A stretch of DNA of 13,225 nucleotides from a virus, in UHGV virus genome UHGV-0112548. One strand, 5' to 3'. The translations under genes were made by a program, and so were the position numbers. The notes under the pieces are model-generated. The model had not been told where the DNA came from. It searched no databases and saw nothing but the letters and a program-made list of their open reading frames with translations. Positions 3,240-11,243 of the stretch are shown here, piece by piece. How positions within the stretch are numbered: the stretch's first letter is position 1; every line of letters begins with the position of its first letter.

Positions 3240-3820
3240 GCGTTAGTTTCTCCACAACCAGAAGCAATCGACGCCACGACGCCCGGAGCTGCACACTCGC
3301 GGGCGTTACTCTTTTCCGGCGCACAAAAAACACGAAATAACAGTGTTAAATGCTCCTGCCACTTCGCCATTACTTGGTAGCTGTTCTCTTCGATTTGCTC
3401 ACGCTCAGCCTGGTCAATAACTCCATCAGCAGTTGCCTTGCGTAAGTACTGGGAATGCTTGCCAATCCATTCTATTGACTCCATCAGCCGCTGATTAATG
3501 TCACCATTGTCAATGTCATCAATGACCACCAGCGGCACAAACACCCCATTACTACGACGGGCTATTGCATCTGTTACATGCCTGGTACCACTGGCATCCT
3601 GTAAAACCATGGCCCACTCAAGTGGAAAAATTTGATCCCCACCGCTACGCAGTCTGTTATGCAATTGATCTTTTGCTGGGGTGATATCATCAGATTTATA
3701 CAAACCAAGAATTTCTGCTGCTTCCTCATAGCCATGAGGTAAATCAGCAATCGTTCTTCGTATTGCTGCCACCAGCCATGCTGGTTGTTTATCAACTTTC
3801 CATTCAGGTTCTTTACCCAC
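3236..3820 (-). CDS. CII-like / YdaT-like early regulatory protein
   Basis: 194-aa ORF with GTG start at 3820 and GAGGAA SD 8 nt upstream; sits directly downstream of the Cro-like gene, where lambdoid phages carry cII. Family assignment is from position and recollection only. Confidence 0.45.
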
Positions 3821-3847: not shown

Positions 3848-4045
3848 TTATGCCGCAGCACTGTTAGTCTTTTGATATAAAGACACGTCAACTTTCAGTT
3901 TCCCGTTAGTAATTTTTTCTAACTGGTACGCTCGGCCTTCAGGAATAATCTCAGGCCACTCTGAAACAGACGGATGCTTAATACCTAGGGCTTCGGCAGT
4001 TTTACAAACTCCGCCGAAATAATTAATCACGTCGGATTTCCGCAT
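3848..4045 (-). CDS. cro: Cro-like repressor (YdaS-type HTH)
   Basis: 65 aa, divergent from the CI gene; NYFGG..KTAEALGI..SVSEWPE..IP..RAYQLE..T.GKLK matches the small Cro/YdaS-type HTH pattern; GGGAG SD upstream of the ATG at 4045. Confidence 0.7.
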   Translation of the reverse strand: MRKSDVINYFGGVCKTAEALGIKHPSVSEWPEIIPEGRAYQLEKITNGKLKVDVSLYQKTNSAAA

Positions 4046-4140
4046 TTCTGTCTCCCGTTAAATTACGTTAAGCAGAAATGTAGGATATCCAACATACCAA
4101 TGTCAAGAATCCTACATGGGCATGTGGTAGGATTGCCTAC
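4046..4140. promoter_or_regulatory. divergent PR / PRM-like promoter-operator region
   Basis: On the minus strand: TTGACA (plus 4101-4106), 18-bp spacer, TACATT (plus 4077-4082) with the 18-bp operator ATGTAGGATATCCAACAT (4078-4095) over the spacer and -10. A second symmetric element AATCCTAC-N11-GTAGGATT (4108-4134) overlaps a TAGGAT -10-like hexamer 7 nt before the cI ATG, implying a leaderless cI mRNA as at lambda PRM. Confidence 0.55.
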
Positions 4141-4794
4141 ATGATGAACATGAGTGATCGTATTCGCCAAAGGCGAAAAGAACTGAACCTGACACAACAA
4201 GCACTGGCTGATTTGACTGGTGTGAACCGTGTCACGGTTACTGGATGGGAAAAGGACGACTACCAACCAAATGGAGCCAACCTTCAAGCCCTAGCCAACG
4301 CACTTAAATGCGATCCTCTGTGGCTTGTTAGCGGAAAAGGCTCGCCTGAACCAAAGATAAATCTAAAACCTGAAATATTCGCAGTTAAAAAAGTCCCCCT
4401 CATCTCGTGGGTTCAGGCGGGTTCATGGACAATGACGGAGCCTGGTGTCAGGAAAGAAGATGCTGAAGAGTGGGTTTATACTACCGCCCTTGTATCAGAA
4501 ATGGCATTTGCACTACGGGTCCGTGGTGATTCAATGACCAATCCCCTCGGCTCACCATCGATACCAGAAGGTTCTATCGTTATCGTAGAGCCAGATATTA
4601 TTGATACAGAGTGTATTAACGGAAAAATCGTTGTTGCCCATATCAATGGTGGGCAAGAAGCGACACTCAAAAAATTTGTTGAGGACTGGCCGAACAGGTA
4701 TCTCGTCCCACTAAATCCTAACTATAAAACTATTGAATGCGGTGAGAACTGCAGAATAGTTGGTCTTGTCAAACAAGTAATAATGGATTTTTGA
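4141..4794 (+). CDS. cI: CI-type prophage repressor (HTH_XRE N-domain + S24 LexA-like autopeptidase C-domain)
   Basis: 217 aa; N-terminal HTH (LNLTQQALADLTGVNRVTVTGWE), C-terminal serine motif VRGDSM and downstream lysine (ATLKKF); divergent from cro across an operator region; no SD upstream. Confidence 0.85.
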   Translation: MMNMSDRIRQRRKELNLTQQALADLTGVNRVTVTGWEKDDYQPNGANLQALANALKCDPLWLVSGKGSPEPKINLKPEIFAVKKVPLISWVQAGSWTMTEPGVRKEDAEEWVYTTALVSEMAFALRVRGDSMTNPLGSPSIPEGSIVIVEPDIIDTECINGKIVVAHINGGQEATLKKFVEDWPNRYLVPLNPNYKTIECGENCRIVGLVKQVIMDF

Positions 4795-4815: not shown

Positions 4816-4840
4816 AAACCGGGGTATCCCCGGTTTTTTT
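4816..4840 (+). terminator. rho-independent terminator downstream of cI
   Basis: AACCGGGG-TAT-CCCCGG GC-rich hairpin followed by a run of seven T (4834-4840), about 20 nt after the cI stop. Confidence 0.7.
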
Positions 4841-4856
4841 ATGAGCCTATCTTTTT

Positions 4857-4910
4857 ATGTAGGATAACCAACATAAACTCTTGACACTCACATGTTGGAT
4901 ATCCTACATT
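4857..4910 (+). promoter_or_regulatory. PL / OL-like promoter-operator
   Basis: TTGACA at 4881-4886, 18-bp spacer, TACATT at 4905-4910. Operator ATGTTGGATATCCTACAT (4892-4909) is the exact reverse complement of the PR operator at 4078-4095; a second copy ATGTAGGATAACCAACAT lies at 4857-4874. Confidence 0.55.
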
Positions 4911-4992
4911 TGTTTTTAGAGTAGCCGCCGGTGGCATATGAATAACCGGATGATTCGCTGACAGAAAACTTAGGTTGGGGGTAGAGGTTTAC

Positions 4993-5358
4993 ATGAATCA
5001 TTTATTCACATGCTCATTTTGCGGAGCAACCGAACTGGGAGCGATAAAGATCGTCGCAAAAGGTGGTAAGGACGAACCTGCCATCTGTTCGGAATGCGTA
5101 GTCACATGTGTAGAAAAAATGATCCTGACTAAAAAATCAGAGGCTGAAAAACCAACCTCTGATAACGAAATAATATCAGTCGATAAAAAACTATTTAAAG
5201 AGCTTCTTCAGCTTGTCCTCAACCTTCCTGATTTCGGAAGTAAGCTGGCTGCTGTTGACATTGATAGTAGCTCCACATCGACAAGTGAAACTTTTGTTCG
5301 ACTTGAGCCAAGCGATTTTCTTCTTCGTCTTAGTGCCGCACTTAGGGCATGCGGGTAA
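4993..5358 (+). CDS. small protein with ClpX-type C4 zinc finger (ClpX N-terminal zinc-binding-domain-like)
   Basis: First ORF downstream of the PL-like promoter; ATG at 4993 after a GGGGGTAGAGG SD (the track start at 4975 is an alternative). CSFCGATELGAIKIVAKGGKDEPAICSECVVTC parallels ClpX [30 protein letters not shown]; no AAA+ module follows. Confidence 0.55.
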   Translation: MNHLFTCSFCGATELGAIKIVAKGGKDEPAICSECVVTCVEKMILTKKSEAEKPTSDNEIISVDKKLFKELLQLVLNLPDFGSKLAAVDIDSSSTSTSETFVRLEPSDFLLRLSAALRACG

Positions 5359-5388
5359 CGTAATTTCCTGGTTATCAAAAGCGCCCAT
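5191..5388 (-). CDS. small zinc-ribbon protein, antisense to the 3' half of the ClpX-zinc-finger gene
   Basis: 65 aa from the second ATG (5388), which has an AAGAGGG SD about 7 nt upstream. Contains CPKCG..(18 aa)..CRCG and a Lys-rich tail. Overlaps 5191..5358 of the plus-strand ORF, so one of the two may be a shadow ORF. Confidence 0.4.
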   Translation of the reverse strand: MGAFDNQEITLPACPKCGTKTKKKIAWLKSNKSFTCRCGATINVNSSQLTSEIRKVEDKLKKLFK

Positions 5389-5481
5389 AAACATCCCTCT
5401 TGGTTGTGTGAGAACACCAAGATACCACCGCGCCTGATGTGGTTAAAAGCAGGCTAAAGCAATAACAAGTAACTCCCTGTT

Positions 5482-5531
5482 CTGGCGGCCCGGTGTTTTC
5501 CCGTGTATTTCCGGTAACCGCCAGCCTTTTT
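5482..5531 (+). terminator. putative terminator-like hairpin (tL-like) in the leader upstream of rdgC
   Basis: CTGGCGG (5482-5488) pairs with CCGCCAG (5519-5525) around a ~30-nt loop, followed by CCTTTTTC. The loop is long for a classic terminator. Confidence 0.3.
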
Positions 5532-5536
5532 CAGGG

Positions 5537-5648
5537 CACAACAGAAAAGGGCATCACCGGGCGACGGGCTCATAACCCAATCCACCCGGGCAAAAAGAAA
5601 GCGGTCTCTGCAAGCCGCCGACCAATGCAGGTGCCCTTCTCTGTTGTG
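5537..5648. other. long-range inverted repeat (17 bp, one mismatch) enclosing ~78 nt; predicted long RNA stem in the early-left leader
   Basis: CACAACAGAAAAGGGCA at 5537-5553 versus TGCCCTTCTCTGTTGTG at 5632-5648 (reverse complement CACAACAGAGAAGGGCA). Confidence 0.4.
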
Positions 5649-5700
5649 TATGGAGAAACTAACTTTTTAGCGCCGGTGCAGAGGCGTTGAGGAACCGAGA

Positions 5701-6618
5701 ATGAACAATCCGTTTTTCAAAAATATGTTGGTGTATCGCATTAGTCGCGATTTCACCATCAACCAGGAAGAGCTGGAACAGCAGCTTGAACTATTTCGCT
5801 TCACTCCATGCGGTAGCCAGGATATGGCAAAAACCGGTTGGGTATCACCACTTGGTCAGCTGTCAGATCGCTTGCATCACACTGTCAATAATCAAGTGTT
5901 GTTGGTTATTCGCCGGGAAGAAAAAATACTGCCATCTCCTGTCATTGCTGAAGAACTGCGCAAGCGTGTGTCGCGTCTGGAATCCGATCAGGGGCGTCGC
6001 CTCAAAAAAACTGAGAAAGATTCGCTGCGTGATGAAGTGTTGCACTCCCTGCTTCCTCGGGCGTTCTCCAAAAACTCGACTGTTAGTTTGTGGATCAACG
6101 TCACCGACGGTCTGATCATGGTTGATGCAGCCAGCGCTAAACGTGCCGAAGACTCACTGGCCCTGCTTCGTAAAACTCTCGGTTCTCTCCCGGTGGTACC
6201 GCTGACTATGGAAACGCCGATCGAACTAACTATGACCGAATGGGTTCGTTCCGGTAGTGCGCCTGCTGGCTTTGGCCTGGGTGATGAAGCCGAACTGAAA
6301 GCTATTCTTGAAGATGGCGGTATTGGACGCTTTAAAAAACAGACTCTGGTCAGTGACGAAATTCATGTGCATCTGGAAGCTGGCAAAGTAGTTACAAAGC
6401 TGTCTATCGACTGGCAACAGCGCATTCAGTTCGTTCTTTGCGATGACGGCAGCATCAAACGCCTTAAGTTCTCTAATGAGATTACAGAACAAAACGACGA
6501 TATCGACCGTGAGGATGCGGCTCAGAGGTTCGACGCTGACTTTGTTCTGATGACCGGCGAGCTTATCTCTCTCATTAACGGATTAACAACCTCTCTCGGC
6601 GGCGAAGCCAAGCGATAA
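5701..6618 (+). CDS. rdgC: RdgC-family recombination-associated protein (prophage-borne paralogue)
   Basis: 305 aa; [62 protein letters not shown] and [14 protein letters not shown] track E. coli RdgC along its full length as I recall it. GAGGAA SD before the ATG. Confidence 0.85.
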
Positions 6619-6726: not shown

Positions 6727-7266
6727 ATGAGCTACATTCAGACATTATCCGGCAAACATTTTAATTACCTCGATATCCAACAGGACGATATCGTGATCGA
6801 GGATATTGCTACCGCGTTGTCTCATATCTGCCGCTTTGCAGGGCATCTTCCTGAGTTTTACAGCGTCGGCCAGCATAGCGTTTTAACCAGCCATCTCGTT
6901 CCGCAGGAGTTTGCCTTAGAAGCACTGCTTCATGATGCCGCCGAAGCCTACCTGCAAGATATTCCCTCACCGCTTAAGCGCCTGTTACCGGATTACCAGG
7001 TGATCGAAGCTCGCGTAGACGCTGCTATTCGCCAGAAATTTGGCCTACCGACGGAGCAACACCCAACAGTGAAATATGCCGATCTGGTGATGCTCGCCAG
7101 CGAACGCCGCGATTTTGAGATTGACGAAGGTTCCGTGTGGCCATGCCTCGATGGCGTTGTCCCGACGGACCTATTCATCATCAATCCAGTTCGTCCAGGC
7201 CAGTCATACGGCATGTTCATAAATCGCTTTAATGAGTTGATGGAGCAGCGTCAATGCGCCGCATGA
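6727..7266 (+). CDS. HD-domain phosphohydrolase (YfdR-like 5'-deoxynucleotidase class)
   Basis: His at LSHICRFAGH and the HD dyad at EALLHDAAEAY fit the HD superfamily. Start chosen at the ATG at 6727 with GGAG 6 nt upstream; the track start at 6700 is a GTG. Confidence 0.6.
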   Translation: MSYIQTLSGKHFNYLDIQQDDIVIEDIATALSHICRFAGHLPEFYSVGQHSVLTSHLVPQEFALEALLHDAAEAYLQDIPSPLKRLLPDYQVIEARVDAAIRQKFGLPTEQHPTVKYADLVMLASERRDFEIDEGSVWPCLDGVVPTDLFIINPVRPGQSYGMFINRFNELMEQRQCAA

Positions 7267-7430
7267 AGGTAAAAGAACTCGTGGCGGAGGCGTTTGCCTC
7301 CGTGGCTGAATTGCCACCAAAGCATGCATCGCTTATGCGCGAAGTCGCTACCAGGCTTGAAGCTACGTTCGCAGCATTAACCGAATCATTGGCGCAACTG
7401 GAACAGGAACGTAAAGGTAAAACGCAATGA
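7254..7430 (+). CDS. hypothetical small protein (58 aa)
   Basis: Not in the ORF track (under 60 aa). My translation: MRRMKVKELVAEAFASVAELPPKHASLMREVATRLEATFAALTESLAQLEQERKGKTQ. Start overlaps the HD-gene 3' end and the stop overlaps the next ATG as ATGA, consistent with translational coupling. Confidence 0.35.
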   Translation: MRRMKVKELVAEAFASVAELPPKHASLMREVATRLEATFAALTESLAQLEQERKGKTQ

Positions 7431-7681
7431 CCGTATTTGAATATCTCCAGGGCCACCCGAACGCCACCAGCGGTGAAATCGCAAGGGCGATGGGTAAAAA
7501 GACGCCAGCCGTAGCCAGCGCACTATCTCAGCTTTATGCAACAGGGAGAATTGTTAAGTCTGGCGCACGCGGTGGGATACCGACATACCGCGTCAATGAT
7601 CTGCCGTTTGGATGCAGCAATAACTTAACGCTGATATTTAACCAGCTTCTGCGAAACGTCCGCAAAGGAGCAGCCCAATGA
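7427..7681 (+). CDS. small winged-helix-like DNA-binding protein
   Basis: 84 aa; SGEIARAMGKKTPAVASALSQLYATGRI has the helix-turn-helix / wing pattern; ATGA overlaps at both ends. Confidence 0.45.
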   Translation: MTVFEYLQGHPNATSGEIARAMGKKTPAVASALSQLYATGRIVKSGARGGIPTYRVNDLPFGCSNNLTLIFNQLLRNVRKGAAQ

Positions 7682-7995
7682 GCAAATTTACGGCATTACC
7701 AGTAGAACGCGACCAATACGGCTACTGGACTCACCCCGTCTATGAGCAATTTTGCGATGGTCGTGAATTTATCTCACCTGATGAGTTCAACGCCTGGCTG
7801 GATAAAAACGGCCTCGAATGGACGGTAGTTTACCGGGATGAAGAAGACATCGATCCTGAAGTTGATGGTTACGATATTTCAGCCTGGCAGCCAGAATCGC
7901 CAGCCGGTGAAGGTTGGTTTGTCGGTTCAATTCACAACACCGAAGATGGCGCGGTATGCATCTGGTTACGTAACGTTGAAGGCGGTGCAGCATGA
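7678..7995 (+). CDS. hypothetical phage protein
   Basis: 105-aa ORF, coupled to neighbours by ATGA overlaps; acidic, no motif I recognise. Confidence 0.5.
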   Translation: MSKFTALPVERDQYGYWTHPVYEQFCDGREFISPDEFNAWLDKNGLEWTVVYRDEEDIDPEVDGYDISAWQPESPAGEGWFVGSIHNTEDGAVCIWLRNVEGGAA

Positions 7996-8750
7996 CAGTC
8001 CATACACTGAAGCAATGCCGCCCGGACCAAGAAGAAACCGAGTATTTCTGGAAGTTGTTTCATGCGGCACAACGGAATGACGCTCGCTGGCACGGTAGTG
8101 AAATCAGCATTATCGCCGATGAACTATCCCGGACGGATTTAGATCGTAATCAAAAACTGTTTCTTCTCCGTGCCTGGCAAGTGCTGGTAGACGACAAAGG
8201 TGGATTCGGGCGCTTGATGGGTGCCTTTGATACTTACGTCTACAACATGCAGGACCCTGATGATGACTGCGTAGCCTGGAAGCCTGAACTGGCTAAGCTG
8301 CTACAGGATGGCAATCTGTTTGATGTTGTGCTGACGGCATATCAGGAGGCCTGCCATGAGGGGATCGTTAATTGGGAGGCAGCGGTATCTCTTTCTGAGG
8401 AAAACGTAGAACTGAAGCGCAAACTCTACGCAGCAGAGAATCAAATAGCAGAACTGGAGGCGCGGACGTTCAATCCTGCAATTCTAGATGTGATAGCAGA
8501 GCGCCAGCGGCAGAAAGCCGTTGAGGGCTGGACGTCTGAGCATGACGACGCCTATCAAAACAGTGAGCTGGCAGATGCTGCAGCTTGCTATGCGATTAAC
8601 GCACACAATCAAGGCCTCTCAACGCCAGCGCATTGGCCGTGGGCTCCTGATTGGTGGAAGCAATCTGGGCCGCGTCGTGACCTTGTGAAAGCTGGCGCAC
8701 TTATTCTGGCCGAAATTGAACGCATAGACCGCCAGGAGGCCGCCCAATGA
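7992..8750 (+). CDS. hypothetical phage protein with central coiled coil (possibly Ead/Ea22-like)
   Basis: 252 aa; coiled-coil segment NVELKRKLYAAENQIAELEART; C-terminal WTSEHDDAYQNSELADAAACYA. The family label is a recollection only. Confidence 0.5.
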   Translation: MTVHTLKQCRPDQEETEYFWKLFHAAQRNDARWHGSEISIIADELSRTDLDRNQKLFLLRAWQVLVDDKGGFGRLMGAFDTYVYNMQDPDDDCVAWKPELAKLLQDGNLFDVVLTAYQEACHEGIVNWEAAVSLSEENVELKRKLYAAENQIAELEARTFNPAILDVIAERQRQKAVEGWTSEHDDAYQNSELADAAACYAINAHNQGLSTPAHWPWAPDWWKQSGPRRDLVKAGALILAEIERIDRQEAAQ

Positions 8751-9139
8751 GCAACATCAACAAACGCGCAACAGAGATGCTGATTGAAAACGGAGTGCTG
8801 GTTGCCGACACGCTGAGGCGTTTGGCTGATAACGAAATCGACTCCGATTACTTTGCTATTTGCCACACAAACGAAAACGGAACTGAAATTGAATGCGAGC
8901 TGGCAATTACAGATTACGCACGCCAATCTGCTGGAATCGTTGATGATCTGGTAAATGCGCTGGAAGCCGCAGAGAAGCGCATTGCAGAACTGGAAGCGCG
9001 GGAAATATCGCTCCCAGAACTTAGCAGCATGCTTCATCGAACAGATTTTCACGAGGATTACCAAACGGTAATGGCATACAAAGTTTCTGAGGTCATCGCT
9101 GCAATCCGCGCCGCTGGCATTCGCATCAAAGGAGAGTGA
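8747..9139 (+). CDS. hypothetical phage protein with coiled coil
   Basis: 130 aa; AEKRIAELEARE repeats the motif of the upstream gene; ATGA coupling at the start. Confidence 0.5.
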   Translation: MSNINKRATEMLIENGVLVADTLRRLADNEIDSDYFAICHTNENGTEIECELAITDYARQSAGIVDDLVNALEAAEKRIAELEAREISLPELSSMLHRTDFHEDYQTVMAYKVSEVIAAIRAAGIRIKGE

Positions 9140-9140
9140 T

Positions 9141-9575
9141 ATGGCGTTAACACACCGCGAACTCTGTCAGATTGCGTACAAGTTCCTTAAGCGCAACGGG
9201 TTCAAGGTTTGTTTTCATGACCGCTTTATAGCTGTAACCAGTACCGGAGAACAGCCAGATGCTATGGGATTCAGAAATTCAGCATCATGCCTGATAGAGG
9301 CGAAATGTTCTCGTGCTGACTTGTTGGCAGATAGAAAAAAGCGTTTTCGTAAAAATCCGTCTCTTGGAATGGGCGACTGGCGATTCTTTATTAGTGAGCC
9401 GGGAATTATTTCAATTGAGGATTTACCACCTGGCTGGGGATTACTTCACGTTGTTAACGGAAGAGTACGGAAAGTGCATGGGTGCCCAAGGGTAATTGCT
9501 GTTGGGGTAATCCTGACGATAAGCCATTTACTGGAAATAAGCAGGTTGAATGCGATTACATGTTATCTGCATTAA
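9141..9575 (+). CDS. PD-(D/E)xK nuclease-fold protein (VRR-NUC-like); C-terminus possibly frameshifted
   Basis: GEQPDAMGF followed by CLIEAKCS gives a PD...(E)xK arrangement. After about residue 105 the frame looks poor, while another frame (9458..9655) reads protein-like and ends in ATGA overlap with the next gene. Confidence 0.5.
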   Translation: MALTHRELCQIAYKFLKRNGFKVCFHDRFIAVTSTGEQPDAMGFRNSASCLIEAKCSRADLLADRKKRFRKNPSLGMGDWRFFISEPGIISIEDLPPGWGLLHVVNGRVRKVHGCPRVIAVGVILTISHLLEISRLNAITCYLH

Positions 9576-9651
9576 GGCGCATGGAGTTGAGAGGGCACCT
9601 TAATGAAATATATGACGGTGTAATTGTTAATAAGAAAGAAGGAAACGCGGC

Positions 9652-10353
9652 ATGATCACTATTACCAAAGAGCGACTGCTGACAATCAAGCAGTGGCGCG
9701 AAACATACGGACCTGGTAGCAACGTTGTACTGCCAGCAGAAGAAGCGGAAGAACTGGCACGAATTGCTCTGGCATCGCTGGAAGCAGAGCCTATTGGTGA
9801 GGTTTCAGAGAAGCGACTCGGCCTTGTTATGGATGGAACGGTAGACCTTGGCGGGAAATCAACTTATCGCATCATTAAGGGAGAAAAAGCGATGAAGTTG
9901 TTGCCGCTGGGGACGAAGTTTTATGCCGCCCCTCCAGTGCCAGTAGTACCGGAAGAAAAACCAATGCCTAACCCTCTTAAAATGTACGCGGTTGATGCTG
10001 TTGCCGCTATTGCAGAGGTGAGAGGCTGGAACGCCTGTCGTGCCGCTATGCTTCAGGGTAAATCCGAACAACCACAAAACGCACAACAAAATATTCCGGA
10101 AAATATTCACGGTGGCAACTCTCCGGTAACTCCGGATGGTTGGATAAGCTGTAGTGATCGAATGCCGGAAAAGAATCAGAACGTGCTTATTTCAGTGAAT
10201 TTCGATAGCTCTCTGGTTGAACCGCTAATATGCTCCGCACGCTATACCGGAAGCACCTTTCGGCGCGGAGATGCAACGATTAAGCCGGGTAATGGTATTG
10301 AGCAAGCAACTCACTGGATGCCGCTACCGGAACCGCCGCAGGAGGTGAAGTAA
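9652..10353 (+). CDS. DUF551-like phage protein
   Basis: 233 aa; C-terminal DGWISCSDRMPE ... ATHWMPLPEPP resembles the conserved end of DUF551-family phage proteins (from memory). Confidence 0.55.
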   Translation: MITITKERLLTIKQWRETYGPGSNVVLPAEEAEELARIALASLEAEPIGEVSEKRLGLVMDGTVDLGGKSTYRIIKGEKAMKLLPLGTKFYAAPPVPVVPEEKPMPNPLKMYAVDAVAAIAEVRGWNACRAAMLQGKSEQPQNAQQNIPENIHGGNSPVTPDGWISCSDRMPEKNQNVLISVNFDSSLVEPLICSARYTGSTFRRGDATIKPGNGIEQATHWMPLPEPPQEVK

Positions 10354-10925
10354 TGAATAACTTAATGATCGACCTTGAGACGATGGGGAAAAATAAGGAT
10401 GCACCGATCGTTTCCATTGGCGCGGTGTTCTTCACTCCAGAAACCGGAGACATCGAACAAGAATTCTATACGGTTGTTAGCCTGGAAAGTGCTATGGAGC
10501 AAGGAGCTACACCTGACGGCGATACCATCCTGTGGTGGTTGAAACAGAGCTCTGAAGCACGAGCTGCAATCTGTATTGATGATACTTTGTCGATCAGCGA
10601 TGCACTCTCTGAACTGAGCCATTTCATTAATCAGCATGCAGACAATACAAAATATTTAAAAGTCTGGGGTAACGGGGCCACCTTCGACAACGTAATTTTA
10701 CGTGGAGCTTACGAGCGAGCAGGACAAATCTGCCCGTGGGCGTACTGGAATGACCACGATGTACGCACGATCATTACGCTTGGGCGTTCCATCGGATTCG
10801 ACCCAAAAATGGACATGCCTTTCGATGGCGAACGGCACAACGCCCTGGCTGATGCCCGTCATCAGGCAAAATATGTTTCCGCTATCTGGCAGAAACTAAT
10901 TCCTGCCACCAGCACAGAATTATGA
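10353..10925 (+). CDS. DEDD-type 3'-5' exonuclease
   Basis: 190 aa; Exo I motif MIDLETMG, mid-protein VWGNGATFDNVIL, C-terminal HNALADARHQAKY (H-x4-D), the DEDDh pattern. Start overlaps the upstream stop as TAATG. Confidence 0.7.
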   Translation: MNNLMIDLETMGKNKDAPIVSIGAVFFTPETGDIEQEFYTVVSLESAMEQGATPDGDTILWWLKQSSEARAAICIDDTLSISDALSELSHFINQHADNTKYLKVWGNGATFDNVILRGAYERAGQICPWAYWNDHDVRTIITLGRSIGFDPKMDMPFDGERHNALADARHQAKYVSAIWQKLIPATSTEL

Positions 10926-10961
10926 TTTTCCCGGGTGCAGCCGGTTTTGATGGAGAAAATT

Positions 10962-11243
10962 ATGAACACCTTGTTTTTACTGATGGCTGAATTCAATACC
11001 CCTAACATTGAACTCTCAGCAGTTAGCCAGAAGTACTTTGGCATGAGTCCAGCCACGGCAGAAGCAAAAGCAAACGCTTGTAAGTTGCCCGTTCCAACAT
11101 ATCGCATCGGCACATCACAAAAAGCAAAACGTTGCATCAATATTCAGGATCTTGCGGAATACATAGACAAAAGACGAGAAGAAGGACGTATCGAGTGGGA
11201 ACAGGTCAGAACAGGCAAACAGAAGGGCAAAGAACATCACTAA
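10962..11243 (+). CDS. PrtN / excisionase-like small DNA-binding protein
   Basis: Start at the ATG at 10962 with GGAG 6 nt upstream (MNTLFLLMAEF..); resembles PrtN-family proteins as I recall them; last gene of the plus-strand operon. Confidence 0.5.
   Translation: MNTLFLLMAEFNTPNIELSAVSQKYFGMSPATAEAKANACKLPVPTYRIGTSQKAKRCINIQDLAEYIDKRREEGRIEWEQVRTGKQKGKEHH

Follow-up and report, generated by a model that had tools for sequence, protein, structure and literature searches.

The 13,225-nt stretch of the virus genome UHGV-0112548 (the window, meaning here the whole of that stretch) carries at positions 5701-6618, on the + strand, an intact rdgC gene that belongs to a phage lineage. The gene is under purifying selection, it lies behind the repressor-controlled promoter PL of an SfV-like phage, and this phage has no recognizable Rec module and many oriented Chi sites. 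The explanation we favor, with a confidence that falls a little short of even, is that the gene encodes a functional RdgC, an early-expressed ring dimer that would encircle DNA and restrain RecA. RdgC in phages is already known from RefSeq annotation, from HrdC of phage P1 (listed since 2004), from PHROG 724, and from the early-left copies of lambdoid phages (2025).

The open reading frame (ORF) begins with ATG and encodes 305 amino acids (aa). As originally predicted, it resembles RdgC over its full length: the Pfam family PF04381 (RdgC) covers residues 5-302 with profile positions 2-298 of 298 (E = 8.2e-116; 386.9 bits, cut-off 25), PHROG 724 ("exonuclease recombination-associated") matches at E = 3.9e-125, and the NCBIfam equivalog NF001460 scores 513.3 bits, above its curated cut-off of 501. 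RdgC was the sole Pfam match of the protein, with no sequence-level match to RexA. The best solved structure is that of E. coli RdgC (PDB 2OWL, E = 9e-136), and BLASTP aligned the phage and E. coli proteins with 203 of 301 residues identical (67%) and no gaps, the phage protein having two additional N-terminal residues. Ten residues of RdgC have been defined by mutation, with loss of function when they are mutated (Briggs et al., PMC2965237). The gate residues R118 and F120 and the horseshoe residues Q212, E218, H222, and K227 close the ring dimer, and the basic fingertip R97, K98, K100, and K101 is required for loading onto circular DNA (PMC2965237). At an offset of +2 in the gap-free alignment, all six gate and horseshoe residues are identical in the phage protein, and the fingertip reads R99-R100-L-K102-K103, so that all ten mutationally defined residues are present, K98 as an arginine. 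The ratio of nonsynonymous to synonymous substitution (dN/dS) is 0.03-0.11 in comparison with relatives whose synonymous sites are saturated (synonymous difference, pS, 0.71-0.74). The phage rdgC is therefore an intact gene under purifying selection and not a decaying copy. The same residues bear on the idea that phage subunits form mixed rings with host RdgC and alter its activity, so as to allow more RecA-dependent recombination. Identity of the gate and horseshoe in the two proteins would permit such mixing, but with an intact DNA-loading finger the mixed rings would be expected to work normally, and nothing points to a degenerate or "poison" subunit in a protein under purifying selection over its whole length; we regard this idea as highly improbable.

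The possibility that the gene is the host rdgC locus itself was rejected, since its neighbors are phage genes and it has only 67-69% DNA identity to the host copy, which is present in addition. In a lower-stringency search the host rdgC was found at that identity in 5425 of 5426 complete E. coli genomes, and the best-matching strain, 97.3, has both the phage and the host copy. The chromosomal locus has the order sbcC-mak-rdgC-ppnP(-aroM), as verified for one Enterobacterales protein. In the window, the minus-strand genes to the left encode P22-Cro-like, CP76/CII-like, replication-initiator-like, and PerC-like proteins, a Dam methylase, a LexA-like repressor, and RusA; to the right lie genes for a YfdR-type HD protein, small ORFs, DUF551, an Rv2179c-like 3'-5' exonuclease, and a PrtN/excisionase. 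DNA of this phage is found at no less than 99% identity in prophages of 33 of the 5426 genomes, including that of Nissle 1917. The original description of a gene distinct from host rdgC and flanked only by phage genes was thus correct. A 43.7-kb circular record is an SfV-like phage with lysis, baseplate, tail, and integrase genes, evidently the excised phage. In strains AH02 and CT01 (NZ_CP081704.1 and NZ_CP081794.1) the assemblies contain the whole phage in the chromosome and again as a circular "plasmid" of 43.7 kb, which implies spontaneous excision or replication in culture. In the circular form a dusA fragment adjoins the integrase gene, and a type II restriction-modification pair and a DinI-like gene are also carried.

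In a neighbor-joining tree, the phylogeny suggested with the original prediction, RdgC proteins of temperate phages form one clade with internal identity of 70-87%. Its members are the protein of the window, those of prophage lineages at 87%, 74%, and 71% identity, and those of phages F1055 and KpF5. The chromosomal RdgC proteins of Enterobacterales, 82-91% identical among themselves, make up the sister clade, and RdgC of phage SP069 and HrdC of P1 branch deeper. Recent capture from E. coli was rejected as an origin because the phage clade stands apart from the chromosomal one and holds more diversity within it; judging from the tree, the phage rdgC is an old phage lineage. When the gene was used in a nucleotide search of deposited phages, only a 78-nt patch matched, and relatives were found at the protein level. 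In sum of its likenesses, the phage protein shares with E. coli RdgC the family, the length class, and the tested interface and finger residues, and it differs in its repressor-controlled early operon, its two extra N-terminal residues, and its separate, more diverse clade. The homologues gathered in PHROG 724 (355 phage records), among them P1 HrdC, are also phage-borne, repressor-controlled, and early. The P1 gene lies in the C1-repressor-controlled operon uhr-hrdC-dmt next to a nucleotide hydrolase gene (uhr in P1, a YfdR-type gene in the window), and P1 likewise depends on host RecA and RecBCD (PMC12315714). HrdC is, however, only 56% identical to the phage protein, and the composition of its operon is different.

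The control region lies to the left of rdgC. The Cro-like repressor gene, the first of the rightward early operon, is at 3848-4045 on the - strand (PF14549 P22_Cro, E = 7.6e-22). An 18-bp palindrome, ATGTAGGATATCCAACAT, at 4078-4095 is the OR operator and overlaps PR (TTGACA-18-TACATT, 4106-4077, - strand). The CI-type repressor gene at 4141-4794 (+ strand) encodes a helix-turn-helix domain and an S24 self-cleaving peptidase (PF01381 and PF00717), and the repressor should therefore be RecA-inducible. It is followed by a strong intrinsic terminator read from the sequence (AAAACCGGGGTATCCCCGGTTTTTTT, 4817-4841, + strand), at a position whose homologue in SfV is annotated as a terminator. OL/PL occupies 4857-4910 (+ strand): operators at 4857-4874 and 4892-4909 bracket the promoter TTGACA(4881)-18-TACATT(4910). 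These 18-bp palindromic operators match OR with one or two mismatches; three such sites were found and none is expected by chance, and the PL region is a 45-nt mirror image (inverted repeat) of the PR region on the other strand. No promoter-like site was found on the + strand from 4911 to 5700. The claim that rdgC is driven from the PL side is supported by this arrangement. Because the terminator and OL/PL precede rdgC, the sequence supports a gene that would be repressed in the lysogen and turned on upon CI cleavage.

The placement of rdgC at the head of the early-left operon needs adjustment, as the gene is in the PL operon but is not the first in it. The product of the first PL gene (4993-5358, + strand) is 121 aa long, and its N-terminus resembles the C4 zinc finger of ClpX (PF06689, a match at E = 7.6e-6 that narrowly misses the cut-off; phrog_20296; RefSeq annotation). 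The protein might compete with ClpX for substrates or adaptors. This ORF sits at the position of lambda N, and profile searches with Pfam, PHROG, and NCBIfam recognized no N-like protein there. It is followed by a terminator-like hairpin (CTGGCGG...CCGCCAG) and T-run at 5482-5531 (+ strand), read from the sequence and directly 5' of the leader RNA considered below; an equivalent hairpin and T-run precede the leader in nearly all related loci. Between the leader and the gene (5664-5700, + strand) there is a small hairpin with a UGCAG loop, in which one compensatory change separates the window from a relative, and then the Shine-Dalgarno sequence GAGGA 7 nt before the start codon. The rdgC gene is thus the second of the operon, after the zinc-finger ORF, the terminator-like hairpin, and the leader.

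This order has a bearing on a proposal made for lambdoid RdgC proteins. Zheng et al. (2025) set RdgC aside as a non-Rec-module protein and suggested that it is expressed in the cI transcript (PMC12315714). Such a gene, expressed with cI in the lysogen, would have a RexA-like role in superinfection exclusion or in biasing the choice between lysis and lysogeny (Zheng et al., 2025). Expression within the cI transcript is unsupported in the window, where the terminator (4817-4841) and OL/PL (4857-4910) stand between cI and rdgC. In lambda, rexA lies between cI and OL. RexA and RdgC are remote fold relatives, both bind DNA non-specifically, and rexA as well as the phage rdgC lies close to cI (PMC11077077; PMC12315714), and this closeness to cI speaks for a RexA-like role. 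Against it, the RexA gene shares a transcript with cI and its product works with RexB, whereas in the phage the terminator and PL/OL intervene and no adjacent RexB-like membrane partner was found by Pfam, PHROG, or RefSeq annotation; moreover, with 67% identity to true RdgC the protein has retained the interfaces of the closed ring, while its likeness to RexA is remote and structural only. We therefore find a RexA-like role quite unlikely.

The original prediction also held that the phage copy stands where lambda carries exo, bet, and gam, and could either restrain RecA or protect phage DNA ends. Among the ORFs of at least 84 aa between PL and xis, Pfam and PHROG searches found no strand-annealing protein, no lambda-Exo or RecE, and no Gam or Abc2 (the 58-aa ORF at 7254-7430 was outside the scan), and the RefSeq annotation of the identical phage agrees in listing no Rec-module genes. 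The Chi sequence (GCTGGTGG) occurs six times on one strand of the window and once on the other, and a 33-kb portion of the phage has 11 and two, with about 0.2-0.5 expected per strand. The same enrichment and orientation bias were seen in the four other RdgC-bearing temperate lineages examined. A class of Rec-less, Chi-rich lambdoid phages that depends on RecBCD has been described by Zheng et al. (2025, PMC12315714), and its type phage, LLS, grows better with RecBCD (PMC12315714). With at least eight Chi in one orientation and few in the other as the mark of the class, the counts of 11 and two place the phage in it. LLS likewise has no strand-annealing, exonuclease, or anti-RecBCD gene, its Chi sites are numerous and biased in orientation, and it carries the same leader RNA. 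What was taken for a replacement of exo, bet, and gam is better put as membership of a phage class without any Rec module and rich in Chi.

The protection of DNA ends is not easily reconciled with a genome whose Chi sites recruit RecBCD. In this explanation the ring would thread onto the ends of linear phage DNA as a Gam-like shield against RecBCD and other nucleases, or would serve anti-defence in general. RdgC does bind linear duplex DNA tightly (PMC2965237), and neither Gam nor Abc2 was found among the early-left ORFs of the phage. However, oriented Chi at about 20 times the expected density suggests that RecBCD entry is used rather than blocked, RecBCD enhances growth of the related phage LLS (PMC12315714), and RdgC gave no PADLOC match and has no known anti-defence homology. 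A shielding function is accordingly one that we rate as very unlikely.

Restraint of RecA is a reasonable mechanism because the paralogue behind PL keeps all of the ring-closure and loading residues. The E. coli protein inhibits RecA strand exchange, ATPase activity, and LexA cleavage, according to the summary of Drees 2006 given in PMC11077077. In the lysogen, CI bound to the OL operators over PL would keep rdgC silent, and infection or RecA-triggered cleavage of CI would give early RdgC from the PL transcript, with the terminator-like hairpin and the structured leader possibly adding further control. The phage protein would load onto DNA via its basic finger, and the loaded ring would restrain RecA in strand exchange, ATPase, and co-protease functions, as host RdgC does. 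The pay-off could be that RecA, especially RecA loaded by RecFOR, is kept off replicating phage DNA and that SOS is damped, with Chi-directed, RecBCD-loaded recombination remaining as the productive route. Several points weigh against this explanation. It seems contradictory for a phage to inhibit RecA when it needs recombination that depends on RecA and is stimulated by Chi. Sister phages with YfdP and YfdQ in place of RdgC are Chi-rich too, so this feature does not single out RdgC. The hairpin upstream may limit the predicted read-through from PL. Finally, hrdC of P1 was dispensable for plaque formation in a CRISPR interference (CRISPRi) screen (PMC10695390), and any phenotype may therefore be conditional.

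The genes downstream of rdgC were originally read as an unusual recombination or anti-defence module, made up of an HD-domain hydrolase, a PD-(D/E)xK nuclease, and a DEDD exonuclease; they turn out to be a common early-left block of the YfdP/Q/R/S/T type found in SfV-like phages. The HD hydrolase is indeed there: the gene at 6727-7266 (+ strand) encodes a YfdR-type HD 5'-deoxynucleotidase (phrog_318, E = 3.7e-98) and aligns along 97% of its length with genes annotated as yfdR (66-67% DNA identity). So is the DEDD-type 3'-5' exonuclease, an Rv2179c-like protein encoded at 10353-10925 (+ strand; PF16473, E = 2.5e-74; phrog_255). The possible PD-(D/E)xK protein is the 144-aa product of 9141-9575 (+ strand). 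Its motif D40...E53-x-K55 is present, but no Pfam, NCBIfam, or PDB sequence match was obtained even at E <= 10, and its partial matches to phrog_9263 and phrog_631 align only to the first half of the PHROG profiles (positions 21-139 of 260 for phrog_631). A single-sequence structure model of it had a predicted local distance difference test (pLDDT) score of 47 and was unusable. At its end it overlaps with a 57-aa ORF of a different frame (region 9141-9655), and the gene may be frameshifted or truncated. The other + strand genes of the block are four early-left ORFs without assigned function (7427-7681, winged-helix; 7678-7995; 7992-8750; 8747-9139), the DUF551 (YfdS-like) gene at 9652-10353 (PF04448, E = 3.7e-22), and the PrtN/excisionase gene at 10935-11243 (PF11112, E = 4.2e-23; phrog_1300). 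PADLOC found no defence match in the early-left block except a weak DEDDh hit for the exonuclease.

The homologous block of SfV, mEp460, and the K-12 prophage CPS-53 has the order YfdP-YfdQ(DUF2303)-YfdR-YfdS-YfdT-excisionase, and from this order RdgC occupies the slot of YfdP and YfdQ. The window resembles K-12 CPS-53 (yfdPQRST) and SfV (orf32-orf28) in the YfdR-type HD, DUF551, and TorI/PrtN-type excisionase genes, and it shares the leader RNA with SfV and mEp460; it differs in having RdgC where those have YfdP and YfdQ, and from CPS-53 also in that the latter has lost the immunity region and the leader. In other phages the slot is empty or holds a second, very divergent RdgC lineage of 305 aa (21-27% identity; PF04381, E = 2e-33; four IMG/VR contigs), which in those prophages likewise lies downstream of the same leader RNA. 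As this divergent lineage holds the same slot, RdgC-type activity appears to be selected at this operon position. A structure model of YfdQ (pLDDT 77.6) gave no RdgC- or RexA-like fold match in the PDB, so that the alternative occupants of the slot are not RdgC homologues in disguise.

The exchange of genes in one slot raises the possibility that RdgC is the functional counterpart of YfdP and YfdQ and acts with the YfdR-type HD protein to shut down or redirect initiation or restart of host replication, its effect on RecA being secondary. The leader RNA before the slot and the YfdR-type gene after it are the same whether RdgC or YfdP plus YfdQ stands between them. A YfdR-type gene comes directly after RdgC in F1055, and three more temperate lineages have a size-matched gene of 178-179 aa in that place. 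Initiation at oriC in K-12 is inhibited when yfdQRS or yfdQRT is present in extra copies, and YfdR binds DnaA at Phe46 (PMC4776307); host rdgC, for its part, interacts genetically with the PriA/PriB restart pathway (PMC11077077). A shared position is nevertheless no proof of a shared function, the YfdQ model lacks a match to RdgC or RexA, and the association is not constant: RdgC of KpF5 has no adjacent YfdR, and P1 pairs its RdgC with a nucleoside triphosphate (NTP) pyrophosphohydrolase and a methyltransferase. We consider a role in replication takeover to be unlikely. An RdgC that is expressed early and restrains RecA remains the explanation that we prefer.

The leader that separates this cargo from the first PL gene is a conserved structured RNA of 135 nt (5529-5663, + strand) with three helices, P1, P2, and P3. 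Helix P1 is long (about 19 bp; approximately 5536-5555 paired with 5631-5650), P2 is capped by the invariant sequence CGGGCUCAUAACCC (5565-5578), and P3 is variable. In prophages with RdgC 71-87% identical, conservation is higher in the 170 nt that precede rdgC than in rdgC itself. When 38 distinct leader sequences were aligned, RNAalifold returned the three-helix structure with 11 pairs showing compensatory changes. In this alignment 97.6% of the cells are paired, versus 42-56% when the partners are slid, and none of 500 shuffles reached the observed value. A covariance model of the leader scored 95-123 bits on the + strand (the window, 101) and 32-37 on the - strand; because the score is far higher on the + strand, the RNA is probably made in the direction of rdgC.

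The leader is widespread. A 16-mer from it, GGCTCATWACCCAATC, matches more than 120 viral contigs, and blastn with the leader region of the window found 62 deposited phages, among them SfV, SfIV, mEp460, phiNP, Stx2c phages, LLS, and F1055 (coordinates in the fetched stretches: SfV 3493-3602, mEp460 3493-3602, F1055 4993-5102); no annotation in these 62 phages describes it. The SfV-type version is present in 2492 of the 5426 E. coli genomes (approximately 46%), with as many as five copies in one genome, and these sites carry no RNA annotation. It lies upstream of rdgC in phages like the one studied here and upstream of yfdP, the divergent rdgC, or yfdR in others. It is absent from the dicF-dicB region of K-12, and the rightward operon has no second copy. 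With Rfam 15, no match to the leader reached the gathering score in the window, and a permissive Rfam scan of the window gave only a stray Termite-leu match, which falls on the cI terminator. A put-type antiterminator like that of HK022 was considered and rejected, as PL is about 620 nt upstream of the leader and the leader is built of three helices; put RNA is about 70 nt in length, has two stem-loops, and lies at or near the promoter (PMC9378689). The covariance model had no match in a fetched 8-kb HK022 stretch, which has no annotated put, nun, or cI and may or may not include the put sites.

The anticodon stem-loop of the E. coli initiator tRNA has exactly the sequence of the invariant P2 cap, CGGGCUCAUAACCC (tRNA sequence from PMC8887418). 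By a rough estimate, the chance that such a 14-mer is identical to any E. coli tRNA is about 1 in 1000. In four of the 38 leader sequences one of the three G-C pairs is missing. ARAGORN detected no tRNA in the leader, and a literature search with the invariant sequence returned only papers on tRNA-fMet and no description of the leader. Candidate roles are processing by RNase III, translational control, and a tRNA-fMet decoy. On a reading centered on the leader, rdgC would be one item of interchangeable early-left cargo (RdgC, divergent RdgC, YfdP plus YfdQ, or nothing, each followed by YfdR). The leader would govern that cargo by coupling its expression to the state of translation initiation, or it would be excised, for instance through RNase III cleavage at helix P1, and serve as a stable tRNA-fMet decoy for factors directed at the initiator tRNA. 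We put this forward as a speculative and rather improbable account of the locus.

Two observations concern RNAs near or similar to the leader. In SfV, the Rfam family STnc100 matches at 39.5 bits (gathering score 47) over 200 nt that end at the hairpin and U-run (3287-3502 of the fetched SfV stretch), together with a weak DicF match. This STnc100 match covers sequence upstream of the leader and outside it, and it suggests a candidate small RNA of the DicF/STnc100 type upstream of the leader in SfV. The upstream hairpin sequence of the window matched neither STnc100 nor DicF. In phage P1, stems of the ban-operon leader (GCACAACAGGTAAGGG.../...CCCTTACCGTTGTG; 7035-7138 and 7481-7570 of the fetched phage P1 stretch) closely resemble helix P1 of the leader. 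One of these phage P1 stems encloses a tRNA-like T-arm and lies beside annotated tRNA-Asn and tRNA-Thr genes, downstream of a "dicF-like region".

Taken with what was already known of phage RdgC, these results add three points. They correct the published guess on expression, as the gene is behind PL rather than in the cI transcript; they place rdgC in the Rec-less, Chi-rich class of phages; and they identify it as an alternative to YfdP plus YfdQ, upstream of a gene of the DnaA-binding YfdR type. The question that results is why phages that depend on RecBCD and RecA should carry a restrainer of RecA. The larger potential value may lie in the leader, a covariation-supported and unannotated RNA that is present in nearly half of the sequenced E. 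coli genomes and whose loop is that of the initiator-tRNA anticodon arm.

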